DNA of 49,329 nucleotides, from positions 1 through 49,329 of the forward strand of contig CAAFXD010000183.1 in NCBI GenBank assembly GCA_900766945.1, in the 5' to 3' direction. A program made the translations under genes and the position numbers. Within the stretch, counting starts at the first letter, position 1. The number at the start of each line of letters is the position of its first letter. The notes under the pieces were generated by a model. The model had not been told where the DNA came from, did not search any database, and was given only the letters and a program-made list of their open reading frames with translations. Of the stretch, positions 5,345 to 29,980 are shown piece by piece. Source of the DNA: Clostridia bacterium. GTDB lineage: Bacteria; Bacillota; Clostridia; Oscillospirales; Acutalibacteraceae.

Positions 5345-5354
5345 ATAATCCTCC

Positions 5355-6200: not shown

Positions 6201-6242
6201 ATGTGCTTATCACCTCACTTTTACATAATGAAAGCTGTCGTC

Positions 6243-6566: not shown

Positions 6567-6588
6567 AGTAAATTTCCTTTCTTATCTT

Positions 6589-8535: not shown

Positions 8536-8547
8536 AAGGCATCCTCC

Positions 8548-14286: not shown

Positions 14287-15918
14287 CTATATGCACACTT
14301 CTTCGTGCCTATGTGTTTTGCTTTTTGGCTCGGTAGTTTCTTCGTCCTCATCGAGCTCGCCGCCGACGATTTCGTTCTCACGCTTATCCACATTGAGCAG
14401 TGCATTGAGTTCGTTTAGCCTTGCGGTTTTGGCTTTAAGTTCTTCTTCCTGATTAAACGGTTTTTCCACATCAGCCTTTGCCGTTTCAAACTGCTTTTGG
14501 GTATTTTCAAGTGTCTGCTCGTTTATTTCCAAACGCTTCGGAAGTCCCTCAAGAGCGTTATCCAAACGGGTAATATTGCCGAAGGTGTCCGTACCAAGCG
14601 ACACGGAATAACCAAGTTCGCCTTTTAGCTTTACTTTGTATTCCTGTGCCAAAGTGTCAAAAGAAAGTTCCATTTGAAATCCACGGTATTCGCCGAGAGG
14701 AACCGGATCGGGACTCGTCATAGCCTGACACGCATCGAGAATTGCATTGCCGGCATCCGCTTTCTCTGAATAGAAAACATCCTTGACCGTCATTCCGATA
14801 AAACTATCATCAAGCGGTTTCGGGTGCTGATTTACTCTCTCCATATCGGATTTCAAGCCCTCTATTGTATCAGTCAATCTTGCGATTTCCTGTGGGAAAA
14901 ACTTGATAATCTTATCTTCAAGAGCATATTTTTCAGAGAGAAAGTTGGACTTTAACAAGCGTAATTTTTGCACGCGAATATCCAAATCCATTTTCTCTTT
15001 AATATGCGGATTGCCTGTCGCAAGCATTTTGATTTCAGCATAGGACAGTGCGGTTTCGTCAATATCCTCGCAGGAACGGACGGGTGATTTACTTGTCATA
15101 ATTTGTGAAGAAAACTTTTGTTTTCCTTCGACAAGCTGATACAGATATGCATCAAAAGTCTGTTCCGTAACATACCTGTATATATCCACTTCGGGATTTT
15201 CATTCCCCTGACGAACTATTCGTCCGAGCCTTTGTTCAAGGTCGGATGGGCGCCAAGGACAATCGAGATCGTGTAAAGCAATAAGTTTGTTTTGCACATT
15301 CGTTCCTGCACCCATTTTTTGCGTAGAACCCATAAGCAACCGGACTTCACCTTTGCGGGTTTTCTTAAAGAGGTCCAGTTTTTTTGCTTCTGTGTCAGCT
15401 TCGTGAATAAACTTGATTTCACTTTCGGGTATCCCGCGCTCAATCAATTTTTTGCGGATATCCGTATAGACGGAGAAAGTGTCATCGCCTTTTGGAGTGG
15501 AAAGGTCGCAAAAAAACAACTGTGCAGCATATTTGTCCTGTCCTTCTTTCCAAATACGGTAGATATTTTCGACGCAGGCATTGAGTTTACTTCCCTCAAA
15601 ATCAGGAAGAGTATCATTGATAAGTCGCTGATCAAGTGCCAGTTTTCTGCCGTCATTTGTGATTTTGAGCATATTATCCACGCTTGCGTCTACCAAACCT
15701 TGCCGCACTCGGTCTGCTCTTTCGGAGAGTTTTGCAACCATTTCCTTTTGCATTTCGGACGGTTTCACGGCAATGTTGTGGAAATTTGCTCTCGGAACCG
15801 GAAGGTTAAGCATATCCGCGGTCTTAATGTCAGCGACTTCTTTGAACATCGCCATAAGTTCAGGCAGGTTGTAGAACCTTGCGAACCTTGTCTTTGCTCG
15901 GTAGCCTGTTCCTTCGGG
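14287..15918 (-). pseudogene. C-terminal fragment of the polyvalent MTase/SNF2 gene, severed by the transposon insertion
   Basis: The open frame continues upstream of the ATG at 15855 as ...PLPEGTGYRAKTRFARFYNLPEL-MAMFKEV with no start codon. It carries helicase motif VI (QRLGRIVRQGN). A 522-aa product from the internal ATG at 15855 remains possible. Confidence 0.8.
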
Positions 15919-15926
15919 GAGCGGTT

Positions 15927-15932
15927 TGTCAA
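15927..15932 (-). promoter_or_regulatory. -35 half (TTGACA) of the circle-junction promoter
   Basis: The minus strand reads TTGACA 8 nt inside the left end. It pairs with TATAAT at 23161-23156 only when the ends are joined. Confidence 0.6.
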
Positions 15933-16117
15933 GATGTTTTCCGCATATTCTCTAAATTAAATTTTTCGGCGGTGGTAATGCCGCCTAAAACCTCCTGCCT
16001 GCAAAGGTCAGAAAGTGCCTTTTCAAGCGGTTTTTTCGCTGTTTCAGCCTGTTTTACGCAGACGATATAGGTCGTGTTTCCAATCCTTAATTCGTAACTT
16101 GAATTTGTGTTTTCCAT
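15929..16117 (-). CDS. tnpW: TnpW-like small protein (62 aa)
   Basis: MENTNSSYELRIGNTTYIVCVKQAETAKKPLEKALSDL... resembles TnpW (RIGxTTYxV). AAAGGAGGG SD before the ATG at 16117. The longer track ORF (to 16297) has no SD. Confidence 0.6.
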   Translation of the reverse strand: MENTNSSYELRIGNTTYIVCVKQAETAKKPLEKALSDLCRQEVLGGITTAEKFNLENMRKTS

Positions 16118-16309
16118 TTTCGTTTTCCCTCCTTTTTCGGTTTTTGCGGTCTGAAAAGAGAAAAGGCGGCTTCGACCTCCGGGTTCTAAATGAAAATCCC
16201 AAGCGTCAAAACCGCCGTTTACTGCCCGAAAAAGAGTATCGGGGCATATTCTCTTTCCCTGTCTAAAGCAAGAGGACAAGAATACATAGTGTCCCATCGA
16301 AAAGGACGC

Positions 16310-17578
16310 TTACCTCTCCCAATCGTCCCTCGATTTTCGTTTCCGTGCCGGCTTCGGCTGCTCTCTTTCCTCTGCCCGTTCCTTTTGCGGGAACAGCGTC
16401 TCGAAGAATGCCTTAACCTTGTCGGGGAAGCGTTGCAAAGCCAGCAGATAGGGCTTCGTAATCTCAACAAGCCGCTCATACTTCTCCGTCACCTCCGCAA
16501 GCCGCTCCTTCACATTGGACAGCTGGGCACTCAAATCCATTGCCTTATTTCGGTAGTAGCTTACGCTCCTCTCCAAGTCGTGGATCTCCGAGCGTGAAGA
16601 AACGCCCTCTTTGGCAAGGGCTTTCAGGCTGTCCAGTTCCTGTTTGGAAACGGTGTACTTGCCTGTGATGCCCTTGCTGCCGAGAGCGTCGATTTCGGCA
16701 TAGGTTGCCGATACCTTGTGTTTTACCTTGACCTCACCGGATACCTCCGCAAGCTCCTTTTTCGCCTCCTTGACCTTCTGCTTTGTCTGGGCAAGGCGTT
16801 CCTTATCTTTTTCTATCTGGAAGTCGAGACTGTCCAAATGCTCCGCCGTACTGCCCAGCTCGCCACGCTCAAAGCCCGTAAATCCCGCCGCCGTCATGTG
16901 TTCAAAAAGCTGGTCTTGGAGGACGGAATAGGACTTTCGGAACACAGGCTTCCCGTACTGGTTGACAGCCTGCTGTCCGTTCTCGTCCAGAACAGGGACG
17001 GTGTTCTTCCACTTTTTCGAGTGGGAGACTTGGTTGATGACTTCCTTGACCGTACCCCGCAGCGCTTCGTCCTTGCACCGTTTCGACCAGCGGATTTCTT
17101 TTCGGACGGTGGGGATTGCAACGATATGGAGGTGGTAATGGTAGACCGGCTTTCCCAGTTCCTCCGACACCGCCTTGTTGATTTCATCGGCGTGCATGAC
17201 CGCCGAGACGATGTTCTCCTCCCCGTAAATCCTGCAGGCAAAGCGGTAGGCTTCCTCATAAAAATGCCTTGCGTACTCATAGCCGCCCCGTTCCTCAAAG
17301 TACCTCGTGTTCACATCGACGACCATTTCATTGAAGCGTATCGCCCCCTCTTTCTGACCCCTCGTGGAGATTTTCCCCTCGTCGATGAGCTTCTGGAAAT
17401 ACTCGTTGTAGGTCAGTCCTCCCGTGTCCTTGTAATGGACATTGAGCGGTATCCGCTCCACATCCACATTGAGATTTGCATAGCTTTCGTTCTTACGCTC
17501 GTTGTGTCTTTCGTTTTTCTGCACCGTCGCAGCGGTGATTCTTTCCACCCGTACAACGCTGAAGTTTTCTTCCGCCAT
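16310..17578 (-). CDS. tnpZ: Mob/Pre (MOBV) relaxase, TnpZ-like
   Basis: N-terminal VVRVERITAATVQKNERHNER, HYHLHIVAIP histidine motif, coiled-coil C-terminus. GGAGGTGA SD. Confidence 0.8.
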   Translation of the reverse strand: MAEENFSVVRVERITAATVQKNERHNERKNESYANLNVDVERIPLNVHYKDTGGLTYNEYFQKLIDEGKISTRGQKEGAIRFNEMVVDVNTRYFEERGGYEYARHFYEEAYRFACRIYGEENIVSAVMHADEINKAVSEELGKPVYHYHLHIVAIPTVRKEIRWSKRCKDEALRGTVKEVINQVSHSKKWKNTVPVLDENGQQAVNQYGKPVFRKSYSVLQDQLFEHMTAAGFTGFERGELGSTAEHLDSLDFQIEKDKERLAQTKQKVKEAKKELAEVSGEVKVKHKVSATYAEIDALGSKGITGKYTVSKQELDSLKALAKEGVSSRSEIHDLERSVSYYRNKAMDLSAQLSNVKERLAEVTEKYERLVEITKPYLLALQRFPDKVKAFFETLFPQKERAEEREQPKPARKRKSRDDWER

Positions 17579-17616
17579 TTACATCACCTCCGATTCTGCG
17601 GAAAGGGAGGGGGAGC

Positions 17617-17674
17617 GGTTACGCAACTTTTTCAAAGTGCGTAACCCACTATGACACTTTCAGCAAGCTGAAAG
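17617..17674. promoter_or_regulatory. Candidate RSA/oriT of the transposon
   Basis: 9-bp inverted repeat GGTTACGCA-N12-TGCGTAACC (17617-17646), whose right arm contains AGTGCGTAA and resembles the MOBV nick core GTGTG/T. A second hairpin CTTTCAG-CAAG-CTGAAAG lies at 17657-17674. Both are directly upstream of the Mob gene. Confidence 0.45.
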
Positions 17675-17758
17675 ATGTCGTGGGCAAGGGCTTTCCCCCC
17701 TTGACCTCCCTTAGTGCGGCTTCCGCTCTGCTTTCCGTGCACCGTTCCCCGGCAGCGC

Positions 17759-18772
17759 TCAAAAAGGCAGCTCGTCGCCGCCCTGCGGCAAAGACCAAAA
17801 CCAACTGAAACGGCGTTTGGTTGACACCACGCCGAGGATTGCTTTTGCCTTCTTTGCCGTCGAACTACTGATGTCCGCTTCACGGAGCTTCGCTTCACAC
17901 TCGGACGCTTCGTGTTCCTGACCGTCCGACAGCAGTTCCCTGAGAAGCTGCACGGCGGCGTCCGTTTTCACATTCGGTCTGCCGCTTTTCTGCGGCATTG
18001 AAGCGAGAAGCTCGTCCGCCGTTTTCTCCGTCTGCCGGATGAAGCGCACGCCGTCTTCGTCAACCGAAAATACAATCGCCATCCCCGTCGGCGCAAGGTT
18101 CGCTTTCTGTTGGACAAGGATACGCTCGTCCTCGCTGTCCTTGCTCCTGCCGATGAGCAGTGCGCTCCTTACCGCCCCCACGATGTCGATGGAGCCGGGT
18201 GTGCGGTAGATTGCTTTCGTGCCGAACATCTTGTTCAGATGGTTGATGACGATGATGGCGCAGCCTGTCTCTTTCGCTATGCGGATCAGGCAGTTAAAGC
18301 GTGGGCGGACTTCATTGGCGGCGTTGATCTGGCAGTCCCCAATATAGGAGGAGAGCGGGTCAAGGATGAAAAGCCTTGCTCCCGTCTCTCGGATAGCGGA
18401 GAGGATACGCCCATCGTCAAAGGTCAGCGGGCTTTCCTTTTCGCTGATGAACAGCAGTCGATTCCTGTCCCCATTCGCCTTGATGAAGCGGGGGACAATG
18501 GTATCATCGGCATCGTCCTCCGTGGTCTGGTAAATGATATTGACAGGCGCAGGCGGCTCGTCCGTCTCCGTAAACGGCAGCGGCTCGCCCTTTGTGAGCA
18601 GGGCGGCGATGGTCAGCATAAAGGTGCTTTTCCCATCGCCGGGGTCGCCCTGCACCAGCGTCACCTTGCCGTAGGGGATAAACGGATACCACAGCCACTC
18701 AATTTCCCTCGGCTCGATTTCGCTCGCCCTGATGATTTCAAGGCTGGCATTGTTCTGATTTGCATTCTGCAT
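17759..18772 (-). CDS. tnpY: RepA/AAA_25-like P-loop ATPase, TnpY-position
   Basis: Walker A GDPGDGKST and Walker B LFILDPLSS. GGAAAGGAG SD. Confidence 0.7.
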   Translation of the reverse strand: MQNANQNNASLEIIRASEIEPREIEWLWYPFIPYGKVTLVQGDPGDGKSTFMLTIAALLTKGEPLPFTETDEPPAPVNIIYQTTEDDADDTIVPRFIKANGDRNRLLFISEKESPLTFDDGRILSAIRETGARLFILDPLSSYIGDCQINAANEVRPRFNCLIRIAKETGCAIIVINHLNKMFGTKAIYRTPGSIDIVGAVRSALLIGRSKDSEDERILVQQKANLAPTGMAIVFSVDEDGVRFIRQTEKTADELLASMPQKSGRPNVKTDAAVQLLRELLSDGQEHEASECEAKLREADISSSTAKKAKAILGVVSTKRRFSWFWSLPQGGDELPF

Positions 18773-18826
18773 TTTGTTCTCCTTTCCGTCCTTGCCGGGA
18801 CATAAAAAAGCCCCTGCTTTCTGTCA

Positions 18827-18847
18827 ATTTTCGGGGCGATTTTCGGG
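18827..18847. repeat. Tandem 9-bp direct repeat (minus-strand CCCGAAAAT x2, 12-bp period) abutting a TTGACA
   Basis: ATTTTCGGG occurs at 18827-18835 and 18839-18847 on the plus strand. The minus-strand TTGACA at 18827-18822 is followed 17 nt later by a weak TATGTC, upstream of the TnpY-like gene. Confidence 0.4.
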
Positions 18848-19089
18848 CATTTGCTCCTTTTTAACCGCTAAGAAAGCAAGGGCTATGTATTCGTATTCAG
18901 TTGTAGGGATAGAATATATCGCAGGGTTTGGGGAAGAAAAAAGCGTCCAAGTTGTTACGCTTGAACGCTGGGTATTAGGCTATATATACTTGCAATCCTT
19001 ATTCTTCAGAGTTTACATTCTATAATGGCATAAAGACAGACTTTTTTACTCTAAAAACAGATACACTAACGCTTCCCATTGAGCAAAAA

Positions 19090-20124
19090 TTAAACACCGC
19101 TTCTCAGCTTTTCCCAGTCTTTATTTCCCTGCATATAATTAAAGGTTTCATCTCCAAGAGACTTCAAAAGCTCTTGCTTTAAGCCGACTGAAAAATTATG
19201 GTCAACAGATTTTAGCACCATATGTTGATAAAGCTTAGATTTTGTAAAATCACCTATCGAATCCACGCTATCTAATATTTCCTGCATAAGTTGTGCAGTC
19301 CATGCAACATCTCTTTCCCAAACTGCAACATCCAGTCCAAAACAAACCTCATTATATTTGCCCATTTCAAATGCATCCGCAGCAGAGGACGAAACTTTAA
19401 CCAACTTTTTTGGCATTTCATGATTATCATCTTCCATATAAAGGATGCGCAAATCATTTAATACCATCTGTATGTGCTGATACCCGCTATATATCAACTC
19501 CTCATATGCACGATAGGCTTCCGTCCGTTTCCCTGTTTTACTGTTTACAAGTGCTTCCTTGCGTTTACGCTCTGGATTCTCCAGAGAGAAATAATCCAAA
19601 TATTGAGCTGCTTTTTCATAATCCTCTTTCCGAAAAAACGCATGGAACAGCGAATCCGCTGCTTGATTACGAATCCGTTCGTCCTCTGAGAGTAAACATC
19701 TCTCATACCATCCGAATATCGCATTATCATATTTGTCCTCGTTTGGGAGCTCCATTGCCATTCGCTTCGCATCCAGAATGACTGCCGCCTGCCAAATCAG
19801 TTTCTCGCAATTAGGATATTCCTCAATTTTTTTCTTTACGGAAAGAAATACATCATGGAAGTCTTTGTTTTCCAAGTCCTTTTGAATTATCAATAGATAT
19901 TGGTTAATTTCTTCGTCTGTTAGATTATCTTTAAAGGACAGAAGTTCATCTGTGGTAATGCCAAGTAGCCGTGCAATAGGGGCAAGCAAAGCAACGTCCG
20001 GCAGTGTGTTGCCCCTTTCCCATTTGTTGACAGCAGGGGTAGTTACGCCGAGACAAGTGGCCATTTCCTCCTGTGTCATTCCTTTATTTTTTCTATATTT
20101 TTTGATGACATCTCCGATTGCCAT
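19090..20124 (-). CDS. XRE-family HTH regulator with a long helical-repeat (TPR-like) C-terminal domain, RRNPP-like architecture
   Basis: MAIGDVIKKYRKNKGMTQEEMATCLGVTTPAVNKWERGNTLPDVALLAPIARLLGITTDELL is a canonical HTH_3, followed by about 280 aa that I read as helical (TPR-like). AAGGAGATGG SD before the ATG at 20124. The segment is AT-rich relative to the rest of the transposon. Confidence 0.7.
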   Translation of the reverse strand: MAIGDVIKKYRKNKGMTQEEMATCLGVTTPAVNKWERGNTLPDVALLAPIARLLGITTDELLSFKDNLTDEEINQYLLIIQKDLENKDFHDVFLSVKKKIEEYPNCEKLIWQAAVILDAKRMAMELPNEDKYDNAIFGWYERCLLSEDERIRNQAADSLFHAFFRKEDYEKAAQYLDYFSLENPERKRKEALVNSKTGKRTEAYRAYEELIYSGYQHIQMVLNDLRILYMEDDNHEMPKKLVKVSSSAADAFEMGKYNEVCFGLDVAVWERDVAWTAQLMQEILDSVDSIGDFTKSKLYQHMVLKSVDHNFSVGLKQELLKSLGDETFNYMQGNKDWEKLRSGV

Positions 20125-20167
20125 GTTTAACCATCTCCTTCGCGATTTCTGGATCGACCCTATGTAT

Positions 20168-20196
20168 AGTATAGCGGATTGGAGTTCAAAAAACAA
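20168..20196 (-). promoter_or_regulatory. Predicted promoter of the XRE-TPR gene
   Basis: The minus strand reads TTGTTT (20196-20191), a 17-nt spacer, then TATACT (20173-20168). Confidence 0.35.
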
Positions 20197-20426
20197 TTGA
20201 ATGCGGGTTAAATGTCGGGAATTATTTTTTACCAGTAGTCAACTTTTAATGTGTGAGTATATATTCTGAATATCTATGTACGCACCGCAAAAGTTGCTAC
20301 GGTGTTGTTTGCGGCACTAAAGCTACCACCTTCGACAATACAGTCGCAATTATAACTTCTTGAATACTACCCAAAAAGGAAAAGCCGCCGTCTGTTGACA
20401 GCGACCTTTCCCCGTGAAACAGCGGT

Positions 20427-20810
20427 CTAATTGTAAATCAAATCGCTGTAAACTACTTCCTCGGCACGGTTGCGGATATTGTTCATAGCCTGTGTCCATT
20501 TCATGCCGTCCTCCGCTTTGAGTGCTTCCGTTACGCCCTCTTTTTCGGCAAGCTGTTTTACCAACCGGAAAAGCATATCCTCGGCTTCCTCGTTCAGTTC
20601 GGCAAGGTAATCGTTCAGCCTGCCGCTTGTCAGAAGCTCGGTATAGAGAGCCTTTCTATGCTCCTGGATATACCGCAGATGTCGCTGTCCCCATATCCCG
20701 ATAGGACGCTGTTCCTGCCCGTCCCCGAAGTCCGGCAGCATTACCTCCGTTTCCATCTCTACGCCGCCGACCGATTGATGAATGACTGATTTCCTGTACT
20801 TGATTTCCAT
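20427..20810 (-). CDS. tnpV: TnpV-family protein
   Basis: IGIWGQRHLRYIQEHRKALYTELLTSGRLNDYLAELNEEAEDM...EGVTEALKAEDGMKWTQAMNNIRNRAEEVVYSDLIY fits the TnpV pattern. AAAGGAGAG SD. The gene sits next to the serine recombinase gene. Confidence 0.7.
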   Translation of the reverse strand: MEIKYRKSVIHQSVGGVEMETEVMLPDFGDGQEQRPIGIWGQRHLRYIQEHRKALYTELLTSGRLNDYLAELNEEAEDMLFRLVKQLAEKEGVTEALKAEDGMKWTQAMNNIRNRAEEVVYSDLIYN

Positions 20811-20896
20811 AGATTTTCTCTCCTTTCCGATTTTGCGCCCCTACGATGGGACACTATCACTTCTTACTTTCTTGCTTTTACCGACTAAAGCGCAAA

Positions 20897-22966
20897 TCAC
20901 ACCACCTCCCGCAGTTTTTTCCCGGCTTGTTTGTTATGCCACCATTCAAGACTGTACTCATTATGATGTTTCTTGCGGCATTCCTCGGAGCAAACGGTCT
21001 GACCGCTGCTGTTCGGCCAGAACAACTCGCCGCAGACAGCGCATTTCCTCTGACGGTAATAGTGATCGCCACGCTCGGCTTCCCGTTCCGCTTTCTTCCC
21101 CGCCTGTCCGGCCTGATAGCGGCACTCTTTTGAGCAGAACACCTGACGGTTGCTTGCTGGGATAAACTCCTTGCCGCAATGGGGACATACCTTTTTCCGA
21201 GCGATTTCGCCGCCGTTTTCAGCGATTTTCTTCGCCTTGCGCCGTTCCCTTGCGGCTTTTTCCCTCGCCCTCTGCCGGGCTAACTTCTCCGCTGCAAGCT
21301 GTTCCTCCTGCGCCTTTATCTCGGCAAGTTCTTCCTCGCTATATGCGATATTTACCTGCCCGACATAATTGAAATAAATGTCAACCTGCTGTGTGCGAGC
21401 ATTTCCCACACCCTGCGCTTCGTAAACGACGATTTTATCCACAAGCTCACGGAACATCGTATCGCTCACCTCAGCGGGAGACTTGAATTTGCGTATCAGG
21501 GCGATAAAATGCTCGATGTCAGGCGGCTTTTCCTCGTTCTCGGACAGTTCCTTTTCCAGTTCTCCTATCTTTTCCTCAAGCTCCGCCTGTTCGTCATCGT
21601 ACTGCTTCATAAGCTGTTTGTACTGCCTTTCGGGGAGCAGGCCGGACATCAGGTTTTCATACAGACCCCGCACAAGCCCGGAAAGCTCGCCGTACCGTTT
21701 CTTCATCCGCTTCAAATCCGCTTCCGCCTGCTGCGGCTTCTCCGTCCGTCTTTCAAGCCACAGCCTTTGCAGTTCCGAAGCAAACGCTTTTTCGTCCTTC
21801 AGCACAAGTCTTGAAATTCTCTGGACGGTGGATAAGAGTATCGCTTCCACGGCTTTTGCGCCGATACCGTGCGCTGTGCAGGAATCAACTCTGCTTGCGT
21901 ACCCGCCGCAGCGGAAAGAATACTCGATGGAGCCGTCTTTCCTGCTGTAATGGGTTTGCAGGGTCATTCGTCTGCCGCAGTCGGCGCAGTAGAGATAACC
22001 GCTTAACCGATGGTAATGGCTGCCCCACGGTGCGCTTCTCCCGGCTCGTTTCCTTGTACGCTGAACGCTGTCCCAAAGCTCCTGTGAGATGATAGCTTCG
22101 TGGGTGTTCGGGAATACATACTGTTCCTCGGCGGGCGTTTCCTTTCGTTTGTGGAGCTTGAAGTTCGTCCCCACGGACTTGTGGAGGATGGTATGACCGA
22201 GGTATTCCTGCCGGTCCAGTATCTTTCTTACCGTTGACACGCCCCAAAGGTAAGGGTCGGAATAATTTTTCCCTCTGGACTGCTCCGTGTGGTATTTCTC
22301 TGAATAAGCGGCGGGTATCAGCACCTTTTCCCCGGTGAGCTGCTCCGCTATCGCCCGTGGGCTTTTGCCCTCGCTGGCAAGCAGGAAGATACGCTTTACC
22401 ACCTCGGCGGCAACCGGGTCAACCACAAGCGTCTGCTTGTCGCCGGGAAGCCTGTTGTAGCCATAGGGGATACTGCCGGAGCAGCGTTTCCCATCCCTCA
22501 TACGGGCGTCAAAGACAGCCTTTATCTTGTTGCTGGTGTCCTTTGCGTAAAACTCGTTCATAATATTAAGGAACGGGGCAAAGTCGTTGTCTGCGGCGTT
22601 ATCGCTGTCAATGCCGTTATTGATAGCGATGAAGCGCACATTTTTCTGAGGGAAAAGGACTTCCGTATAAAATCCCACTTGCAGGTAATTCCTGCCAAAT
22701 CTGGACAGGTCTTTTACGCAGACCGTCTCGATTTCCCCTGCTTCAACAGCGGCAATCAAGGCTTGAACGCCCGGTCTGTTGAAATTCACTCCCGAATAAC
22801 CGTCATCGGTAAAGTGGCGGATATTCGTCAGCCCATTCCTGTGGGCGAAATCTTCCAGGTATTTCTTTTGATTGGTGATCGAGTTCGATTCGCCCACAAG
22901 GTCATCGTCCCTCGAAAGTCTTTCATAGAGTGCTGTCACCCTTGATTTTCCTGCTGTTTTCGGCAT
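20897..22966 (-). CDS. tnpX: Large serine recombinase, TnpX-like (689 aa)
   Basis: ALYERLSRDDD (catalytic Ser), DDGYSGVNFNRPG, KDLSRFGRN. Long coiled-coil, and C-terminal Cys-rich zinc-ribbon repeats (CPHCGKEF..CSKECR; CAVCGELF..CSEECR). Confidence 0.9.
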   Translation of the reverse strand: MPKTAGKSRVTALYERLSRDDDLVGESNSITNQKKYLEDFAHRNGLTNIRHFTDDGYSGVNFNRPGVQALIAAVEAGEIETVCVKDLSRFGRNYLQVGFYTEVLFPQKNVRFIAINNGIDSDNAADNDFAPFLNIMNEFYAKDTSNKIKAVFDARMRDGKRCSGSIPYGYNRLPGDKQTLVVDPVAAEVVKRIFLLASEGKSPRAIAEQLTGEKVLIPAAYSEKYHTEQSRGKNYSDPYLWGVSTVRKILDRQEYLGHTILHKSVGTNFKLHKRKETPAEEQYVFPNTHEAIISQELWDSVQRTRKRAGRSAPWGSHYHRLSGYLYCADCGRRMTLQTHYSRKDGSIEYSFRCGGYASRVDSCTAHGIGAKAVEAILLSTVQRISRLVLKDEKAFASELQRLWLERRTEKPQQAEADLKRMKKRYGELSGLVRGLYENLMSGLLPERQYKQLMKQYDDEQAELEEKIGELEKELSENEEKPPDIEHFIALIRKFKSPAEVSDTMFRELVDKIVVYEAQGVGNARTQQVDIYFNYVGQVNIAYSEEELAEIKAQEEQLAAEKLARQRAREKAARERRKAKKIAENGGEIARKKVCPHCGKEFIPASNRQVFCSKECRYQAGQAGKKAEREAERGDHYYRQRKCAVCGELFWPNSSGQTVCSEECRKKHHNEYSLEWWHNKQAGKKLREVV

Positions 22967-23126
22967 TATTTGCCCCTCCTTTCCTATGTAATCTGTTTTG
23001 CGATTATGGGATTACTCCCTCCACTAATAGGAGAAAAAACGGGGTAAAAGCGGAACTGTTTTTCAAAAAATATCTGAAAAATTTTCGTCAGCCCCAAAAC
23101 CGCCTTTGACTGTCCTTTTTGCAATT

Positions 23127-23150
23127 AAAAAAGGATGATTTCATCATCCT
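23127..23150 (-). terminator. Stem-loop plus U-tract just inside the right transposon end
   Basis: The minus strand reads AGGATGAT-GAA-ATCATCCT followed by TTTTTAATTG. The new TGA stop of the truncated host ORF (23150-23152) abuts the stem. Confidence 0.5.
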
Positions 23151-26100
23151 CAAAAATTATAGCCCTCGGGCGTCAGCTCAACCGCCGTAACGGTTTCGCC
23201 GAAAGTAGAAGCCCACGCATCGAAGTGTTGCAGATTATTTTTCACGAGCGTGTCGTACTGCAAATATCGCTGAATGGTATATAGTTCTACCATAGAATTG
23301 GAAATCGGCGTGCCTGTTGCAAAGACCGTTCCACGCCCTCCGGTTATCTCATCAAGATAGCGGCATTTCATAAACAAATCGCTGGATTTTTGCGCTTCTG
23401 TCTGTGCGATACCACCGACATTTCTCATTTTTGTGTAGAGAAAGAGGTTCTTGTAGTAATGGCTCTCGTCGATAAAAAGCCTGTCAACACCGAGTTCCTC
23501 AAAGGTCACAACATCGTCTTTTTTAGACTGGTCGTTTAGCTTGTCGAGCTTCTGCTTGACAGATTTTTTTGTGCGTTCCAACTGCTTAACGGAGAAGTTG
23601 TCTCCTCGGTTATGCTTCAAGTCCGCAAGCCCTTGTGTGATTTCTTCCAACTGTTGTTCAAGAATAACTCGCTGCCGTTCAATGCTCATCGGGATTTTTT
23701 CAAACTGAGAATGTCCGATGATAATAGCATCATAATCGCCGGTAGCAATCCGACCGCAGAACCTTTTACGGTTTTTGGTTTCAAAGTCTTTCTTTGTAGC
23801 CACCAAAATATTAGCGGACGGATAGAGCTGCAAGAACTCCGACGCCCATTGTTCGGTAAGGTGATTTGGAACAACAAACAGCGATTTACTGCATAAACCG
23901 AGCCGTTTCGACTCCATAGCAGCCGCCGTCATTTCAAAGGTTTTGCCTGCGCCGACTGCGTGTGCAAGGAGCGTATTGCCGCCGTAAAGGATATGCGCCA
24001 CAGCATTTCTTTGGTGTTCTCGAAGTTCTATTTCGGGGTTCATACCATTAAAGGTAATGTGGCTACCGTCATACTCACGGGGACGAATGCTGTTGAACTT
24101 TTCGTTGTATATCTTACAAAGTTTTTCTCTGCGCTTAGGGTCAGACCATATCCAATCCTGAAAACCTTGCTTGATAAGTTCCTGCTTTGACTGAGCGATT
24201 GCGGTTTCTTTTTTGTTGAGTACCGCTTTCTTTTTGCCCTCATCGTCCTCGATATAATCGAAGATACGCACATCTTTCAAATTCAGCGTTTCTTCAATAA
24301 TTTTATACGCATTGATTCGTTTCGTCCCGTAAGTGCTGTATGCTTTGACATTTCCTTTGTCGTAGGTTTTGTTCTCAATATTCCACTCACCTGTATACGC
24401 CGAAAAGTGTAATTTGATATACAATTTTGAATAGTTCGGGGTACCCAAAAACTCAAATATAAACTGCTCTACAATCTCAGGCGGTAGCCAAGTTGCACCA
24501 AGACGAACGGAAATTTCACTTGCCGTCAGGTCTTTCGGCTGCACCTTTTGCAGCGCTTCTACATTGATACTGTAATCTTTTGGTGAAAGCTGTGCGGATT
24601 TTTTTGCCCAGGCGAGCTTCTCACGGACATTGCCGGAGAGATATTCGTCAGCCATAAGATACTTTGCTTCGGTACTGTTCCCGTACCCGTACATCGGGTT
24701 TAAAAAGATAACACCTTTCAGGTCGGCAAAGATTTCCTCCTCGGTTTTGCCTGTAAGCTCGCACATATATTCCATATCAATGCAGGCTTTTTCGCCCATA
24801 GATACGGCAAGCGCTTCGCTGGCAGTATCAACCGAAGTAACAGGGGTATGGGGTTTAATTGTCCTTTTATAGAACATATCCGCTTTCTTTTCCAGAGTCC
24901 CGTCATCGCCCAAGACTTCGAGAGCCGATAACAATGAGAACGAGCTGTCCTGTGAGAAAGCGGAAGAATTGGCACGGCTGTTTATGAGACCGTACTTCGC
25001 CGTAAAGGTATCATAGAGGCTGTTCAGCTTTTCCTGCTCAGCCTTAATTGCCGAGTCGGGATAATCTTCGGTCTGCAACTCAATCAGGTTCCTGACGCAG
25101 TCACGGATTGCAATCATACCCTTAATGCGGTTTTCTGCGGTGGCAGAAACATCAACGGGAGCCATACGGCTGTTTTCACGGAAATAGATTTTGCCGTCCA
25201 CAAGCGTATAGGAAAAGTTTCTCACGGTCGGATCGGCGGGAATGGAATTATCTTCTTCGGTGAGTTCATCTTCCACTTCATAAGCCGTAATCTCACCGTG
25301 AATGTTTGCGACGGCTTCACTGAGCTGCTCTGCAAGGTCAGCGCCCTCATACGGTACACAGGAGGGTTCGGGACCGAAACGCCCCGATACCATTTTCATC
25401 TCACCGAGTATCATTTCGGGATGCTCTACAAAGTAGCTGTTCATCGCAATGCCGTTCTCATCAGTGCCGAGATGCACCCAGTCCGGCTCAATATCTACAA
25501 TGCGGTCACGCTTTTGCAGTATAAGAATATCCGAAACGACTTCCGTTCCGGCATTACCCTTGAAGGTGTTATTCGGCAGACGAATTGCACCGAGCAGGTC
25601 GGCTCTCTGTGCGATATACTTGCGGACTGCGGGATTTTCCTTGTCCATCGTTCCTTTGCTCGTAATGAGTGCCATAACGCCGCCCGGTCGGAGTTTATCA
25701 AGGGACTTTGCAAAAAAGTAGTCGTGGATCAGGAACTTGTGCTTGTCGTATCTCTTGTCGGGAACTTTGAAATCCCCGAAAGGCACATTGCCCACAACGG
25801 CGTCAAAGAAGCTGTCGGGGAGATTTACTTCCTCAAAGCCTTGTGCGGCAATAGAGGTTTTTTGATAAAGCTGCTGTGCAATACCCGCCGAAACGGTATC
25901 AAGCTCTACGCCGTAAACCTTACTTTCCTGCATTGAGTCCGGCAGCATACCAATAAAGTGACCGATGCCACAGGACGGCTCCAAGATATTTCCTTCTCGG
26001 AACCCCAACTGCTCCATAGCCTTATACACGGCTTTTATAACCGTAGGCGGGGTGTAAAAAGCCGTCAGGGTGCTTTCTCTTGCCGACTCATATTCTTCCG

Positions 26101-29100
26101 GTGTCAGAATGTTTTTCAGCATCGCATACTCGGTGTGCCAAGCTCCCATTCGTTCGTCAAAGGCTTCGGGAATACCGCCCCAACCGACATATCTCGACAA
26201 GATTTTCTGCTCATCAGGTGTGGCAAATCGGTTTTCCTCCTGACATCTTTTCAAGACCGTAATCGCAGCATAGTTTCGGTGGAAACGCTCTTTTTTGTTT
26301 ACCTCCGTAATCTCGTTGTTAGCAAGATTAAAGTTGTGTCGCTCGGACATTGGAATTTCAGGGTGCAAGTCACAGGACTGCACCTTGCTTTTCTTTGGCT
26401 TTTCCCAAGCGGGAACGATGGGAACGATAGTCTGTTCAGCCATATCAACTGCTGTTTCAAGATACGGACTGTCAATAATCTCGACGCCCTGCGGGGGCGA
26501 ATCAAGTTGAGTAATAAAGTACTGCGGAATAGTAGTTCCGTCCCTGTCCTTATACAGAACAATTTTCATCGGAACGCCGTAGTAATTTTCCTCTTTAATA
26601 TCCTTTTCAAACTGATAAGGACTTGTGTATTCGATACTCTCACGAACACGACCGTCTGTATGAAGGTAATCAATTCTGCCGATAGGCTTCGACTGTACCG
26701 GTTCTTCCTTGTTTGTTGATTCGATAGAAAGAACCTTACGCTCATCTCCCTCAACGGCTGATAGAACAAGGTCGAAACCTCTGTCGGTCAGCATATTCAT
26801 ATAGGTGTTCAAACGGTTTTGCGGGAAACCCACCATAGGAACTCTCTGACTGTCGCTTACCGCGCGGGAAGTCATCACAAGGTCAAGAGTTTCAGCCACC
26901 GTTTTTGCATCATCATTGTAGGCTTCAAAGAAGTCGCCGACCTGATAGAACACAAGGCTGTCAGGATTTTCGGCTTTTACCGCAAGATATCCTCTGTACG
27001 GTTGCATTACACGGTTGTCCTTAACAGGAACGCCGTTATGTCCGGAAAGCTCTGTGAACTCTTTTAAGAGTTCATCGCTGATACCGAGAACGCCGCCGTT
27101 ATCTTCAAAGACAAAGGCTTCTTCCACAAGGAACTTGTAGAAGTCTTGACCGTGCCACTCATTGCCCATACTGTCAGTTGCGACAAGACCATTCTTATCA
27201 TAGTCAAGCGAAATATCGTCATTTTTGAGTCTTGACAGTACTTCATAAAGCGTATCAATTTCTGTTTGCCTAATTGTTGGCTCACGCATTTGGTCAAATA
27301 TATCATAGTAAATATCTGACCCGCGCTCGGAAACAGGAGTAATTAAACTCAATTGATTTTGGGCTTCAGCAATCATATACCCCATGTTTTTATCAAGCCT
27401 ACCAATAACATCAGGTTTAGGCTCCGAATAAACTTCCAACATAGAATTGAAATCCTCAGTACCGTAATCCACAAGCTCGGTATAAGCATTTTGCTCAAGG
27501 TATTCAAAGAAACTTTTAGCATCACTCGTATTCTCACTTGCTTCTACTATAAGTGGATAAGTAAAGTCCATTATTACAAACTGTCCTTCGGAAAGAGAGT
27601 CAGGGTTGTAATAAATCGCTCTAAACATTTCTCTGGACGGATCGTTGAAAATATATTCCTCACGCCTGATAGGTGTAGTGTTGTGATTATTAAAGGTGAC
27701 TTTCAGGTGGTCATTCATCGGGTTTTCCTGCACCTTTTGGTCGAACTCTGCACGGCTCATTTCCTTATTGAACAAAGGAAACTGCGTATCATAGAGCATT
27801 ACCCGGTCATTGTCAAAGGACAGAATTTCATACTCGTTTGCACCGATATAGACGGTGTTGCCAAGATGATATTCATATCTTTCGTTGCTCGGTTCAGGCT
27901 CTTTCTTTTCGGGCGGTGCAGTAGAAAGGATTTCTCGCTTTCTGCGTTCCTCTGCGGCTTCGATTCTGCGAATTTCGTGTTGCTCAAGCCACGCAGGATA
28001 GAGTTCCTTTTCTTTCGGGTTCAGGTATCTATCCATTTTGATAAGCTCAGAAATGCGCTTTTCAACCTGATTCCAATTTAGAAGCACTTTGACTTCTTCG
28101 CCGTTTACATTCTTCGAGATTTTGATGCCTTTGCCATCGTGCATTTCATCAATGCCCGTTCCGGTAATGACGGGGTAAGAACCGCCCCAACCGTATTCAT
28201 TTTTCAAGAAATCCACATTTTCTTTCTTTGAAAGGCTCTTTTGAAGCTGCTCATAAATGCGGAACTTTCCCTCCGACACGCCGCTTCCACGGGTGAGAAC
28301 AGCGTCGATAATTTCCTGAGAAAAGGAAAAAGCAGAGGGTTTTGTTACCTCTGCTTCGTAATCGAGTATTAAGCTCATCTGCCCGTCCATGGAGGGCAAT
28401 GGCTTCATTGTATCCTGAAGCTCGCCTAAAAGACGCATTGCTTCAAAATGTTCGGCAATAACACCCCAGTCGTAAAAGCTCTGCTTTGTACGACTTAAAT
28501 AGCTGCCCTCCCAAAGCTGAAGCACATTCTGATAAGTCTTGTAGCCGACTCGTCTGCCGTCACTGAGTATCAGTTCAGTATAATCGTTATTGAAAATACT
28601 TTGTATATAAGAAGTCCGGGCAGTCTCGTCAGCGGTTGCTTCAAAGAATGCCCGGATCTCGTCTTTTGTGGCTTTCAGGTGGGGTGTGGTTGCAAGGATT
28701 TCTCGAATAGTATCATCGTTACCGAAGAACGGCAGGCTTCTATCCTCGTTACTTCGGTCGTAATACTCTAAGCGAAGATTACTTCCTTCATCACGATTTC
28801 CTGAACTCGGCTCTTCAGGTTGTTCATCTTCCGAACCCAACTCATCATATCCGCCGCTTTCAGGCTCTCGGTCAAGCCTTCCTTCGCCGCCATTTCTTTC
28901 GTCAGGCGTTCCTCCATTTCGGTCGCCGTCTGTTCGATCTCCGCCAGATGCTCGCTCAGCTTGCAACTCGTCAGGAGATTGTAGTACAGCACCTTGCGGT
29001 TCTCTTTCAGGTACTTCGCTCTCATTCGAGAGTAGCGTCCCATCGGCGCTTCCGGCTGTTCCGGCAGTACCAAGTTGGGAAGTCGATAATCGCCCTGCAT

Positions 29101-29965
29101 CGTGTAAGTCAGTTTGTTCATTTTTTGAACTCCTTTCTGCATTTTCGATTCTGACGGTATTATAATCCTGTTTTTGTTTTTCTGCAAATGTGCGATTTGA
29201 ACTTTTTTCTGCAATTTGCAGATTTCGGATAGTTTTTGATATTTCCTTCAATGCCATTCCCACAATATCACTTGTAGCAAATCCAAGGGCGTTCAGTGTC
29301 TGCGGCGTGTTGAAGTTAACAACATTCTCAAAATCTTCCTGCCCAAAATAACTTTCGGCATCAATACCAAGTCTTACCATTATCATATACGCTACGCTGT
29401 TGGTAACAACTTTTCTGTATATGGAGGAAATATTGTCCTCGTCCAGTTCCTCCAAGAAGCTGTTGTTTACCGAGTAGAGCAAATCACGGGTATAATCAGG
29501 AAGATTGTCCTCGGTGGCATTTTTCGCCGCACTCATAACTGCATCCGCAAGGCTTCGGCTGTTATCCAGTGTTCCAAAGGTGCTTTCAAGAGTTTCAATG
29601 ATTTCCTGCTCATATTCCGGCTTCATCTCCCATATCGGCACGGGGCGGGAATGTTCACTCGGATGTGTGTCAGAAATATCGAAGTAGTAAATAAGCCGCT
29701 GGCGTTTTCTACTAACATCGTCAAGAACCGCAATGCCTGTTGCACCTTTATTAACCCATCTGCCGAAAGTTTTATTCCAGCGCTCAATTTCAAGAACTGC
29801 GGTAGCATCCGGTCGCTGTGCGAACACCAAAAGCTGTTCATCAAAGCGGAGTTTATAGTTTCGGCAGGCGGAAGTTAAAAAGGCTTCCCAATTTTGCGGA
29901 GAGGATATGACCGTCTTGCAGGTACGGTCATACAGTTCGGAGATAAGGTCATACTTGCGAGCCAT
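23150..29965 (-). CDS. Polyvalent conjugative-element protein (ArdC-N / linker / MutS-I-like / N6-adenine MTase / SNF2 helicase N-lobe), 3'-truncated by the transposon
   Basis: One open frame of about 2271 codons. ATG at 29965 with a GGAGG SD 8 nt upstream (the track start at 29968 is a TTG). It ends ...TAVELTPEG-YNF*, and the last 3 codons plus the stop are transposon-derived. Confidence 0.85.
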   Translation of the reverse strand: MARKYDLISELYDRTCKTVISSPQNWEAFLTSACRNYKLRFDEQLLVFAQRPDATAVLEIERWNKTFGRWVNKGATGIAVLDDVSRKRQRLIYYFDISDTHPSEHSRPVPIWEMKPEYEQEIIETLESTFGTLDNSRSLADAVMSAAKNATEDNLPDYTRDLLYSVNNSFLEELDEDNISSIYRKVVTNSVAYMIMVRLGIDAESYFGQEDFENVVNFNTPQTLNALGFATSDIVGMALKEISKTIRNLQIAEKSSNRTFAEKQKQDYNTVRIENAERSSKNEQTDLHDAGRLSTSQLGTAGTAGSADGTLLSNESEVPEREPQGAVLQSPDELQAERASGGDRTDGDRNGGTPDERNGGEGRLDREPESGGYDELGSEDEQPEEPSSGNRDEGSNLRLEYYDRSNEDRSLPFFGNDDTIREILATTPHLKATKDEIRAFFEATADETARTSYIQSIFNNDYTELILSDGRRVGYKTYQNVLQLWEGSYLSRTKQSFYDWGVIAEHFEAMRLLGELQDTMKPLPSMDGQMSLILDYEAEVTKPSAFSFSQEIIDAVLTRGSGVSEGKFRIYEQLQKSLSKKENVDFLKNEYGWGGSYPVITGTGIDEMHDGKGIKISKNVNGEEVKVLLNWNQVEKRISELIKMDRYLNPKEKELYPAWLEQHEIRRIEAAEERRKREILSTAPPEKKEPEPSNERYEYHLGNTVYIGANEYEILSFDNDRVMLYDTQFPLFNKEMSRAEFDQKVQENPMNDHLKVTFNNHNTTPIRREEYIFNDPSREMFRAIYYNPDSLSEGQFVIMDFTYPLIVEASENTSDAKSFFEYLEQNAYTELVDYGTEDFNSMLEVYSEPKPDVIGRLDKNMGYMIAEAQNQLSLITPVSERGSDIYYDIFDQMREPTIRQTEIDTLYEVLSRLKNDDISLDYDKNGLVATDSMGNEWHGQDFYKFLVEEAFVFEDNGGVLGISDELLKEFTELSGHNGVPVKDNRVMQPYRGYLAVKAENPDSLVFYQVGDFFEAYNDDAKTVAETLDLVMTSRAVSDSQRVPMVGFPQNRLNTYMNMLTDRGFDLVLSAVEGDERKVLSIESTNKEEPVQSKPIGRIDYLHTDGRVRESIEYTSPYQFEKDIKEENYYGVPMKIVLYKDRDGTTIPQYFITQLDSPPQGVEIIDSPYLETAVDMAEQTIVPIVPAWEKPKKSKVQSCDLHPEIPMSERHNFNLANNEITEVNKKERFHRNYAAITVLKRCQEENRFATPDEQKILSRYVGWGGIPEAFDERMGAWHTEYAMLKNILTPEEYESARESTLTAFYTPPTVIKAVYKAMEQLGFREGNILEPSCGIGHFIGMLPDSMQESKVYGVELDTVSAGIAQQLYQKTSIAAQGFEEVNLPDSFFDAVVGNVPFGDFKVPDKRYDKHKFLIHDYFFAKSLDKLRPGGVMALITSKGTMDKENPAVRKYIAQRADLLGAIRLPNNTFKGNAGTEVVSDILILQKRDRIVDIEPDWVHLGTDENGIAMNSYFVEHPEMILGEMKMVSGRFGPEPSCVPYEGADLAEQLSEAVANIHGEITAYEVEDELTEEDNSIPADPTVRNFSYTLVDGKIYFRENSRMAPVDVSATAENRIKGMIAIRDCVRNLIELQTEDYPDSAIKAEQEKLNSLYDTFTAKYGLINSRANSSAFSQDSSFSLLSALEVLGDDGTLEKKADMFYKRTIKPHTPVTSVDTASEALAVSMGEKACIDMEYMCELTGKTEEEIFADLKGVIFLNPMYGYGNSTEAKYLMADEYLSGNVREKLAWAKKSAQLSPKDYSINVEALQKVQPKDLTASEISVRLGATWLPPEIVEQFIFEFLGTPNYSKLYIKLHFSAYTGEWNIENKTYDKGNVKAYSTYGTKRINAYKIIEETLNLKDVRIFDYIEDDEGKKKAVLNKKETAIAQSKQELIKQGFQDWIWSDPKRREKLCKIYNEKFNSIRPREYDGSHITFNGMNPEIELREHQRNAVAHILYGGNTLLAHAVGAGKTFEMTAAAMESKRLGLCSKSLFVVPNHLTEQWASEFLQLYPSANILVATKKDFETKNRKRFCGRIATGDYDAIIIGHSQFEKIPMSIERQRVILEQQLEEITQGLADLKHNRGDNFSVKQLERTKKSVKQKLDKLNDQSKKDDVVTFEELGVDRLFIDESHYYKNLFLYTKMRNVGGIAQTEAQKSSDLFMKCRYLDEITGGRGTVFATGTPISNSMVELYTIQRYLQYDTLVKNNLQHFDAWASTFGETVTAVELTPEGYNF
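23153..24031 (-). other. SNF2/DEAD helicase N-terminal lobe of the polyvalent protein
   Basis: Walker A GAGKT is encoded at 23939-23953 (verified codon by codon). DESH box at 23459-23470. Confidence 0.8.
23156..23161 (-). promoter_or_regulatory. -10 half (TATAAT) of the circle-junction promoter
   Basis: The minus strand reads TATAAT 4 nt inside the TCGGG junction, facing the recombinase gene. In the integrated state the hexamer 17 nt upstream is CGGTTG, so there is no -35. Confidence 0.6.
25469..26251 (-). other. N6-adenine DNA methyltransferase domain of the polyvalent protein
   Basis: Motif I EPSCGIGHF at 25955-25981 and motif IV GNVPFG at 25775-25792. Both were verified codon by codon. 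Confidence 0.8.
26759..27007 (-). other. MutS domain-I-like (mismatch-binding N-terminal fold) segment
   Basis: YRGYLAVKAENPDSLVFYQVGDFFEAYNDDAKTVAETLDLVMTSR....VPMVGFPQNRLNTYMNMLTDRGFDLVL parallels the MutS N-terminus (QY..iK...pd.llfFR.GDFYE.F..DA......L.i.LT.R....PM.G.P......Y...L...G..v). Confidence 0.55.
28768..29121 (-). CDS. Embedded TnpV-like ORF (117 aa) in a different frame of the same strand as the giant ORF
   Basis: The ATG at 29121 is preceded by AAGGAG (29135-29130) with an 8-nt spacer. MNKLTYTMQGDYRLPNLVLPEQPEAPMGRYSRMRAKYLKENRKVLYYNLLTSCKLSEHLAEIEQTATEM...EGLTESLKAADMMSWVRKMNNLKSRVQEIVMKEVIFA is clearly paralogous to the TnpV at 20427-20810. Confidence 0.7.
   Translation of the reverse strand: MNKLTYTMQGDYRLPNLVLPEQPEAPMGRYSRMRAKYLKENRKVLYYNLLTSCKLSEHLAEIEQTATEMEERLTKEMAAKEGLTESLKAADMMSWVRKMNNLKSRVQEIVMKEVIFA
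29669..29911 (-). other. ArdC-N-like domain at the N-terminus of the polyvalent protein
   Basis: LLVFAQRPDATAVLEIERWNKTFGRWVNKGATGIAVLD fits the ArdC N-terminal ssDNA-binding pattern (Q.p.At.v..f..W...gr.VkkGekgi). Confidence 0.55.
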
Positions 29966-29980
29966 CAATAACGCCTCCTT

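Follow-up and report, generated by a model that had tools for sequence, protein, structure and literature searches.

A Tn4451-like mobilizable element nested in the helicase gene of a conjugative element from a Clostridia bacterium

The 49,329-nucleotide contig CAAFXD010000183.1 of a Clostridia bacterium (Acutalibacteraceae; assembly GCA_900766945.1), analyzed here over its whole length and called the window, carries genes of a conjugative element and, inside one giant gene of that element, a compact insert that is the subject of this study. The insert occupies positions 15914..23165 on the minus strand (7,252 bp when one copy of a GA crossover dinucleotide is counted). All of its genes lie on this strand in the order tnpX, tnpV, cargo, tnpY and tnpZ, followed by an open reading frame (ORF) at the tnpW position, an arrangement repeated in about 40 related loci. 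The positions of the genes and other features are given in Table 1.

Both junctions of the insert carry the same GA dinucleotide, which appears on the plus strand as TC at 15914-15915 and 23166-23167. Upstream of the insert, the minus-strand ORF at 23150..29968 runs into the left end and terminates as ...FGETVTAVELTPEG-YNF followed by a stop codon (junction peptide VELTPEG-YNF-stop). Downstream, the host frame entering at 15913 reads, from a stop codon onwards, RICGKHLDKPLPEG-TGYRAKTRF..., and its first in-frame start is the ATG at 15855. When 7,252 bp are removed in silico and one GA is kept, the host ORF is exactly restored as a single frame of 2,809 amino acids (aa) that joins 14287..15913 to 23166..29968, with the junction peptide VELTPEG/TGYRAKTRF (the slash marks the splice). 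The sequence predicted for the empty site, attB, is GACGCCCGAAGGAACAGG (as a synthetic junction, GTTGAGCTGACGCCCGAAGGAACAGGCTAC). A homologue search with an 833-aa query centered on the splice returned 8,000 proteins, the top matches being 90% identical over 99% of the query. The splice was crossed without a gap in 121 of the 122 BLAST alignments to uninterrupted homologues, and in the alignment rows printed the 40 aa around it were identical or differed by 1-2 residues. Since the splice matches both the residues and the register of 121 homologues, chance is ruled out as its explanation.

These results bear out the initial annotation of this DNA in several respects, namely its description of the two junctions and of their GA dinucleotide, its restored ORF of about 2.8k codons, and the colinear, ungapped alignment to uninterrupted homologues that had been set beforehand as a check by BLAST. 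The start and the length of 7,252 bp that it gave for the insert also stand, while its span of 15914-23170 must be corrected at the right end, which lies at 23165/23167. The backbone had been called richer in GC than the host element, and its GC content is indeed 0.51-0.54, compared with 0.437 for the window outside the insert (0.496 for the insert as a whole and 0.39 for the cargo). A 100% identical copy of the element lies on the ENA metagenome contig ERZ27229741 k119_47259 (locus L090). The window likewise appears to be a metagenome assembly, and its junctions might in principle be artefacts of a contig chimeric between a mobilizable and a conjugative element. We give this reading practically no credence, because both junctions fall on the same dinucleotide, the ORF is exactly restored, and the same architecture is found in dozens of independent assemblies, including isolate genomes.

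Table 1. Positions in the window of the element, its genes and sequence features, and the two fragments of the interrupted host gene.
Feature	Position	Strand	Basis or remark
Integrative mobilizable element	15914..23165	-	Junction reading and splice
Host gene, N-terminal fragment (MutS_I, N6-adenine methylase, first SNF2 helicase lobe)	23166..29968	-	Stops 3 codons into the element (YNF, stop)
Host gene, C-terminal fragment (Helicase_C and motif VI)	14287..15913	-	No start codon before 15855
GA crossover, tnpX-proximal junction (attL in gene orientation)	23166..23167	-	Inside the Glu codon of host ...LTPE/G
GA crossover, tnpW-proximal junction (attR)	15914..15915	-	Junction comparison
TATAAT, -10 half of circle-junction promoter	23156..23161	-	Sequence
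TTGACA, -35 half of circle-junction promoter	15927..15932	-	Sequence; overlaps the tnpW stop codon
Terminator-like hairpin GAGGATGAT-GAA-ATCATCCTT then TTTT, between left end and tnpX, after host ORF stop	23131..23151	-	Sequence
tnpX-type large serine recombinase, 689 aa	20897..22966	-	Pfam Resolvase, Recombinase, Zn_ribbon_recom, DUF4368; Cys-rich tail
tnpV, 127 aa	20427..20810	-	PF14198, E=1.5e-39, 134.8 bits vs 27-bit cutoff
Cargo XRE-family helix-turn-helix (HTH) regulator, 344 aa from ATG at 20124	19090..20124	-	HTH_3
Terminator-like hairpin after cargo gene	18942..18969	-	Sequence; 10-pair stem then T run
tnpY-position P-loop ATPase, 337 aa	17759..18772	-	PF13481 AAA_25, E=2.2e-26
oriT candidate upstream of tnpZ, three hairpins around invariant GTGTCATAGTGGGTTAC (17641-17657)	17610..17702	-	Conservation and folding
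tnpZ-position MOBV relaxase, 422 aa	16310..17578	-	PF01076 Mob_Pre, E=3.8e-38
tnpW-position ORF, 62 aa	15929..16117	-	Position and homology only; called as gene in L090

The restored host protein contains, according to Pfam, a MutS_I domain (residues 992-1067), an Eco57I-type N6-adenine methylase (1328-1459), an SNF2/ResIII module (1980-2171) and a Helicase_C domain (2423-2504). The Walker A (GAGKT) and DESH motifs are upstream of the insertion, and QRLGRIVRQGN and Helicase_C are downstream. The insertion, which follows residue 2269, consequently separates the two helicase lobes, and the splice joins Walker A/DESH again with motif VI, as had been proposed from the start. The label of an antirestriction gene, by contrast, is not supported, as the domains found by Pfam are those just listed, and neither Pfam nor PDB sequence searches revealed an ArdC/ArdA-like antirestriction domain in the N-terminal part of the protein. 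MutS domain I, a mismatch recognition domain (E=4e-18; window 26768-26995, minus strand), forms an unusual combination with the methylase and helicase that follow it.

Around the insert, the window encodes a VirB4-like AAA_10 ATPase, a VirD4-type coupling protein (T4SS-DNA_transf), an M23 peptidase, a MobA/VirD2 relaxase (PF03432) with its NikA/MobC partner, a CHC2 primase-like protein, DpnD/PcfM, LPD28, a single-stranded DNA-binding protein (SSB) and giant SpaA/thioester adhesins. Genes such as those of the VirB4-like and VirD4-type proteins and the relaxase identify the host as a conjugative element. The claim of an element within an element thus holds, with an integrative mobilizable element (IME) splitting the SNF2 module of a giant gene in a conjugative element that bears a type IV secretion system (T4SS). 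Neither an integrase nor a boundary of the host element was found within the window, and the host may be an integrative and conjugative element (ICE) or a conjugative plasmid. Judged from its neighbors (SSB, primase-like protein and methylase), the host gene plausibly lies in the leading region.

The content proposed for the insert in the initial annotation was recovered by domain search in the Tn4451 order, from the recombinase through TnpV, the cargo and the ATPase to the Mob/Pre relaxase. The predicted nucleophile of the TnpX-type recombinase is S18, in YERLSRDD, and NCBIfam reports similarity to CcrB and XisF below threshold. About 40 related loci encode a counterpart of the ATPase at the tnpY position, with identities of 42-90%. 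Pfam detected no T4SS or coupling-protein domain in any ORF of the insert, which agrees, together with the MOBV relaxase and the oriT candidate described below, with the proposal of an element that has its own Mob and oriT and no T4SS. The element was further compared with that of Enterocloster alcoholdehydrogenati (L017:9927-16268), which measures 6,340 bp from GA to GA, sits in the same helicase codon and encodes a 707-aa recombinase, a 123-aa TnpV, a 207-aa type-A chloramphenicol acetyltransferase (catA) and a last ORF of 62 aa. Protein identities between the two elements were 74, 45, 59, 52 and 52% for X, V, Y, Z and W, respectively (for TnpX, 74% over 679 aa; for the two 62-aa ORFs, E=2e-22). 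The catA element matches the published size class of Tn4451/Tn4453.

Relatives of the element were collected in a scan for the recombinase with one genome per species. This yielded 80 loci, mostly from gut Clostridia but also from Streptococcus constellatus and Peptoniphilus, about 40 of which show the succession recombinase, TnpV, variable slot, ATPase, relaxase and 62-aa ORF. Most loci are flanked by homologues of the window helicase gene (43-91% protein identity to that of the window) that are broken at the same residue. Insertion at the same codon was found in 45 of the 55 junction-anchored genomic loci (42, plus 3 with short flanks) and for 11 of 14 ends in metagenome contigs searched with the left end of the closest subfamily. 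At the 45 helicase-site loci the left end is the GA inside the Glu codon of ...EL-x-PE/G, the right ends abut G-x-GYR in 31 loci, and every helicase-site insertion is co-directional with the host gene. The S. constellatus element (L046) has the X-V-slot-Y-Z-W arrangement and lies at exactly the site used in the window. The insertion is site-specific and not random, and this clade targets one exact codon of a helicase gene family.

The 26 loci for which both junctions were available, with elements of 6.1-11.0 kb, comprise 25 distinct attB and 18 distinct attP sequences. Furthermore, 24 pairs of loci combine elements of at least 98% identity over 2.3 kb with host flanks that fall below 85% identity (66-77%) or cannot be aligned. 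Near-identical elements in diverged hosts indicate independent insertions rather than one event inherited with the host, and integration at this site has therefore been recurrent and independent. The remaining loci (10 of 55 genomic and 3 of 14 metagenomic) lie at other sites, the flanks of which all end ...C(C/G)-N-GA and resemble the primary site. These exceptions, and the low integration specificity described for Tn4451 (PMC5704250), would suit a transposon of low specificity that landed in the helicase gene by chance. We consider such a landing very improbable in view of the common codon, which is shared although the host genes are only 43-91% identical to that of the window, the diversity of attB sequences, the near-identical elements in diverged hosts, and off-targets that look like the primary site.

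Megablast of the whole element against PLSDB gave no match, and tblastn of TnpX and TnpV against plasmids recovered only relatives of 35-72% identity and no Tn4451-bearing plasmid of C. perfringens. The match on a Campylobacter coli plasmid (L081) consists of X and V followed by unrelated genes. Two variations were noted among the loci. In L060 the helicase site is uninterrupted (269-275), and a more distant family member (10001-12061; 55% recombinase identity) lies about 10 kb away, so that its clade may use another site. Extra serine recombinase genes occur in L053, with three in tandem (4938-9845) directly upstream of the tnpX-like gene, and in L058 and L059 (21366-22661), with a second such gene beyond the relaxase gene.

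The two-junction loci also define the crossover. The base 5' of GA differs between the junctions in 19 of the 26 and the base 3' of it in 10, which leaves GA as the sole sequence common to both junctions across the family and hence as the crossover. When the ends of the window element are joined they read ...CATCTTGACA-AACCGCTCCCCGAGGGC-TATAAT..., so that TTGACA and TATAAT, contributed by opposite ends, stand 17 nt apart, face tnpX and match the sigma-70 consensus at 12 of 12 positions. The predicted circle joint, attP, has the sequence TTGACAAACCGCTCCCCGAGGGCTATAAT (as a synthetic junction, CATCTTGACAAACCGCTCCCCGAGGGCTATAATTTTTGAGG). The pattern TTGAC(A/G)-17-TA(T/C)A(A/C)T, with its 17-nt spacer, is kept in 26/26 family loci, and the best promoter-like match upstream of tnpX in the integrated state scores 9/12. 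Circularization would accordingly form a perfect promoter for tnpX. A tnpX promoter made by the circular form is also the model announced in the title of Lyras & Rood 2000, as cited in PMC9765467. Note that the 11-mer AACCGCTCCCC at window 15916-15926 (minus strand), between the TTGACA hexamer and GA, occurs again at 17610-17620, downstream of the oriT hairpins; more distant relatives show no obvious conservation of this repeat, which may be due to chance.

A hairpin-rich block in front of tnpZ, conserved in the loci that were aligned, is a strong candidate for the oriT of the element. In an alignment of 12 sequences, CCCACGACATC and GTGTCATAGTGGGTTAC were invariant. Paired changes preserve the stems of the three hairpins, with CAGC/GCTG, CAGAC/GTCTG and CGGC/GCCG in one of them and TTACGCA/TGCGTAA versus TTACACA/TGTGTAA in another. 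Stems were assessed by folding each sequence separately, as indels put the subfamilies out of register for column-wise covariation. The single-stranded DNA fold of the block had z = -5.2, a value equaled by 0/200 shuffles.

We conclude with high confidence that the insert is an intact IME of the Tn4451/Tn4453 family, integrated by TnpX at the preferred attB of this family in the helicase gene of a conjugative element. In this conclusion attB is the Pro-Glu-Gly triplet CCN-GA/R-GGN (the slash marks the crossover point), located between the two RecA-like lobes of the SNF2 module. A number of observations speak against it. The relaxase at the tnpZ position reaches only 73.9 bits against the NCBIfam MobV model (E=1.7e-20), under the 100-bit cutoff. 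The TnpW of the initial annotation is favored by the position of the 62-aa ORF and by its likeness to the last ORF of the catA element, but Pfam TnpW gave E=0.11 for it; the same model had no match to the last ORF of the catA element, and by missing both ORFs it proves not useful as a test. Likeness to the type element Tn4451 would hold through the catA element as a proxy rather than through U15027 itself. The low target specificity described for Tn4451 (PMC5704250) differs from the strong preference found here for one ICE helicase site, with 45/55 and 11/14 loci at one codon. Finally, as regards activity of this copy, a TnpX of exactly this sequence was present on only one contig of the protein-position index, in the same context, and the circle-junction pattern of the family had 0 matches in metagenome contigs.

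The last two results would also be expected of a fixed and immobile remnant, which integrated once, is inherited with the conjugative element and leaves the helicase permanently inactivated. Streptococcus suis does harbor many decayed IMEs in SNF2 genes, one of them with a truncated integrase gene (PMC7168690). This explanation seems unlikely, however, because none of the six ORFs is truncated and their domains are intact, and because the two ends, the two halves of the promoter and the oriT block fit the family consensus. Moreover, the halves of the host ORF are free of further lesions and splice to a complete frame. For an intact IME of this family, excision, promoter activity, nicking, mobilization and current activity would follow from the Tn4451 paradigm and from the anatomy of the copy.

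A life cycle can be proposed on these grounds. In the integrated state, tnpX would lack a good promoter of its own and would lie co-oriented behind the host gene and a hairpin. TnpX would then recombine the GA ends, restoring the host ORF exactly and releasing a circle, in the joint of which the consensus sigma-70 promoter would drive tnpX and favor re-integration. The MOBV relaxase would nick the oriT upstream of its own gene, and the coupling protein and T4SS would be borrowed from the host or from another conjugative element. Alternatively, the IME might travel passively inside its conjugative host. In the recipient, an element already resident or transferred along with it would provide the same helicase site for integration, and look-alike ...CCN-GA sites would occasionally be used.

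The same arrangement could be read as a regulatory switch, in which induction of the host operon reads into tnpX, the IME excises, the helicase is rebuilt and both elements transfer, the interruption being programmed and reversible, like that of skin-type elements, and not plain damage. Exact restoration of the ORF upon excision, the weakness of the promoter of integrated tnpX, and a fixed orientation, co-directional with the host gene at every helicase-site insertion, are compatible with this idea, and reviews have proposed successive excision with separate transfer of ICE and IME (PMC5357655, PMC5704250). An asymmetric GA crossover makes the fixed orientation automatic, however, which removes it as independent evidence. 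In addition, a terminator-like hairpin stands between the host ORF stop and tnpX, and transfer of ICESp2905 takes place with the IME still inserted in its snf2 gene (PMC5704250). On balance we find the switch doubtful. We are equally hesitant about a broader synthesis, which we regard as tentative and rather improbable as a whole. It would make the Tn4451 family, in nature, an obligate parasite of conjugative elements instead of a transposon of low specificity, with the conserved Pro-Glu-Gly triplet of the SNF2 helicase as its primary attB, with excision triggered by induction of the host and with cargo that adds control. In such a system the asymmetric GA crossover would force tnpX to lie downstream of the host operon and co-oriented with it, repair of the helicase by excision would come right when transfer requires it, and the RRNPP-like cargo would add peptide or cell-density control to excision.

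The cargo occupies the variable slot of the family. Backbone similarity to the closest relatives (L015 and L074) is lost some 55 bp past tnpV and picked up again roughly 200 bp short of the ATPase gene, which delimits a slot of about 1.4 kb in this copy. In relatives the slot holds aac(6')-aph(2''), aph, a VanY-like carboxypeptidase, catA, lnu, an extracytoplasmic function (ECF) sigma factor or a MerR-type protein, and the cargo of the window was found in 0 of 80 genomic and 0 of 14 metagenomic loci. Two chromosomal contigs match its DNA at 97% (L088) and 94% (L082) identity, and its protein has hundreds of homologues at 80-96% identity in Lachnospiraceae-type contigs; the cargo is recently shared with chromosomal loci. 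The AlphaFold model (predicted local distance difference test, pLDDT, 79) has an HTH followed by about 14 helices, with an all-helical C-terminal domain. Its top PDB fold matches include PlcR, ComR, PrgX and Rgg2, all of them weak (E 8e-4 to 1e-2; template modeling score, TM, 0.2-0.3). The cargo is thus an XRE regulator with a predicted RRNPP-like fold, as far as such weak matches indicate, and not a resistance gene.

No convincing gene for a signaling peptide was found near the cargo, the only candidate being an unconserved ORF of 19-25 codons, MFNFCSMGSVSVSVFRVKKSVFMPL, at window 19020-19097 (minus strand). This ORF overlaps the cargo stop, lies in a stretch of about 120 bp without similarity to the backbone relatives or to the chromosomal homologues, and may be a signaling-peptide gene or nothing. 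In a group of chromosomal loci (L082-L087; for example L082:10001-11571, to be compared with window 19090-20810) a homologue with 94% identity to the cargo regulator lies among whiA, rapZ, murB and pheT and is convergent with a lone TnpV gene; recombinase, ATPase and relaxase genes are absent there. TnpV and the cargo regulator consequently adjoin in two different arrangements. The chromosomal neighbors could represent a decayed element or a functional pair.

How the element stands in relation to known systems can be judged first from Tn4451, which is about 6.3 kb long with catP, and whose gene order is said to have been described by Bannam and colleagues in 1995. The window element resembles it in that gene order, in having at one end a large serine recombinase that bears DUF4368 and a Cys-rich tail, in the GA ends, in precise excision (here in silico), in a circle-joint promoter (here by sequence), and in a MOBV relaxase without a T4SS. 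As in the Tn4451 family, there is no target duplication beyond GA, and in-silico excision leaves one GA. It differs in cargo, which is catP/catD in Tn4451 and a regulator with an RRNPP-like fold here, and in size, with about 6.3 kb and a 707-aa recombinase there against 7.25 kb and 689 aa here. The TnpX of Tn4451 is 707 aa long (PMC2810336), and Tn4451 has a 2-bp crossover, needs TnpX alone and is mobilized by VirD4-type systems (PMC5704250, PMC5357655, PMC7168690). Tn4451/3-like elements are abundant in gut Clostridiales (PMC9765467).

Insertion into helicase genes of ICEs is also established. IMEs with serine integrases occupy a fixed internal snf2 site of streptococcal ICEs of the Tn5252 superfamily, and integration into the COG4646 gene of Tn1549-type ICEs has been described, as in the 'Tn1549_COG4646' IMEs of S. 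suis (PMC5357655, PMC5704250, PMC7168690). Published snf2 IMEs (the tet(O) fragment of ICESp2905, IME_Spy2096_SNF2, IME_SsuT15_SNF2 and IME_SsuNSUI084_SNF2) share with the present one an internal site in an SNF2/COG4646 methylase-helicase gene that is disrupted. This likeness is one at the level of the gene. The published IMEs are streptococcal and mostly carry tet(O) and/or erm(B), some of them with additional modules, such as RepA/ParB in the tet(O) fragment of 13.4 kb, whereas here gut Clostridia are the hosts and the element has the compact Tn4451 backbone. Tn6104, nested in Tn6103 of C. difficile R20291, is likewise a TnpX/TnpV-related mobilizable element with a 2-bp repeat inside a gene of a CTn5-like conjugative transposon, and its excision has been demonstrated. 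It is, however, 15.6 kb long with 21 ORFs and mobA/mobL (PMC3158075), and it lies in traG (VirD4) and not in a helicase gene (PMC5704250, Table 1). Skin-type elements, the SCCmec Ccr system and the fdxN XisF system also rely on a large serine recombinase whose precise excision rebuilds an interrupted ORF, but they interrupt chromosomal genes and are not known to be mobilized through a relaxase and oriT of their own. Consequently, this kind of system is already known, serine-recombinase elements in snf2 genes of ICEs having been published, and the present element is a new example with new cargo. In the literature searched, the only relevant paper that names both Tn4451 and SNF2 treats them separately and describes Tn4451 as low in specificity (PMC5704250), and a site preference across the family that includes a cat element of Tn4451 size may thus add an incremental point to what is known.

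In gut Firmicutes, nesting of mobilizable elements is among the main ways in which resistance genes come to be carried by conjugative elements. The slot that holds the cargo here is filled in relatives by aac(6')-aph(2''), aph, catA, lnu or vanY-like genes. With a possible signaling regulator in that slot, the present copy extends the repertoire of the family by a cargo that is not a resistance gene. The results provide a rule for annotation, which is to look for a split SNF2 ORF with GA on either side, one end carrying TTGACA and the opposite end TATA(A/C)T. The fixed docking site in the helicase gene offers a ready-made attP/attB pair for a large serine recombinase, and the nested pair offers a testable system of a parasite and a conjugative host that coordinate excision and transfer.

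The host elements showed further features. In many loci (L003:4358-4660, L017:3508-3903, L023:4603-4911 and about 25 others) the host conjugative element has a TnpV-like ORF of its own, which lies upstream of the insertion site at a distance of about 5-6.5 kb. The ORF of L017 encodes 131 aa and shares DNA, in a different reading frame, with the region where the giant host ORF is annotated to start. A TnpV-like segment in the host ORF of the window was not significant (E=0.15). The window also encodes two giant surface proteins of the host element (32923-45173, minus strand; 1,648 and 1,420 aa) with SpaA repeats and, in the 1,420-aa protein, a thioester domain. The stretch separating their genes encodes a protein with an N-terminal methylation motif like that of type IV pilins (37885-38856) and contains three ORFs without a Pfam match; the region may specify mating adhesins. 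Finally, a cis-regulatory pemK RNA motif of Rfam was detected at window 388-490 (minus strand; 39.9 bits against a gathering score of 34.8), where it overlaps a 147-aa ORF without a Pfam match.

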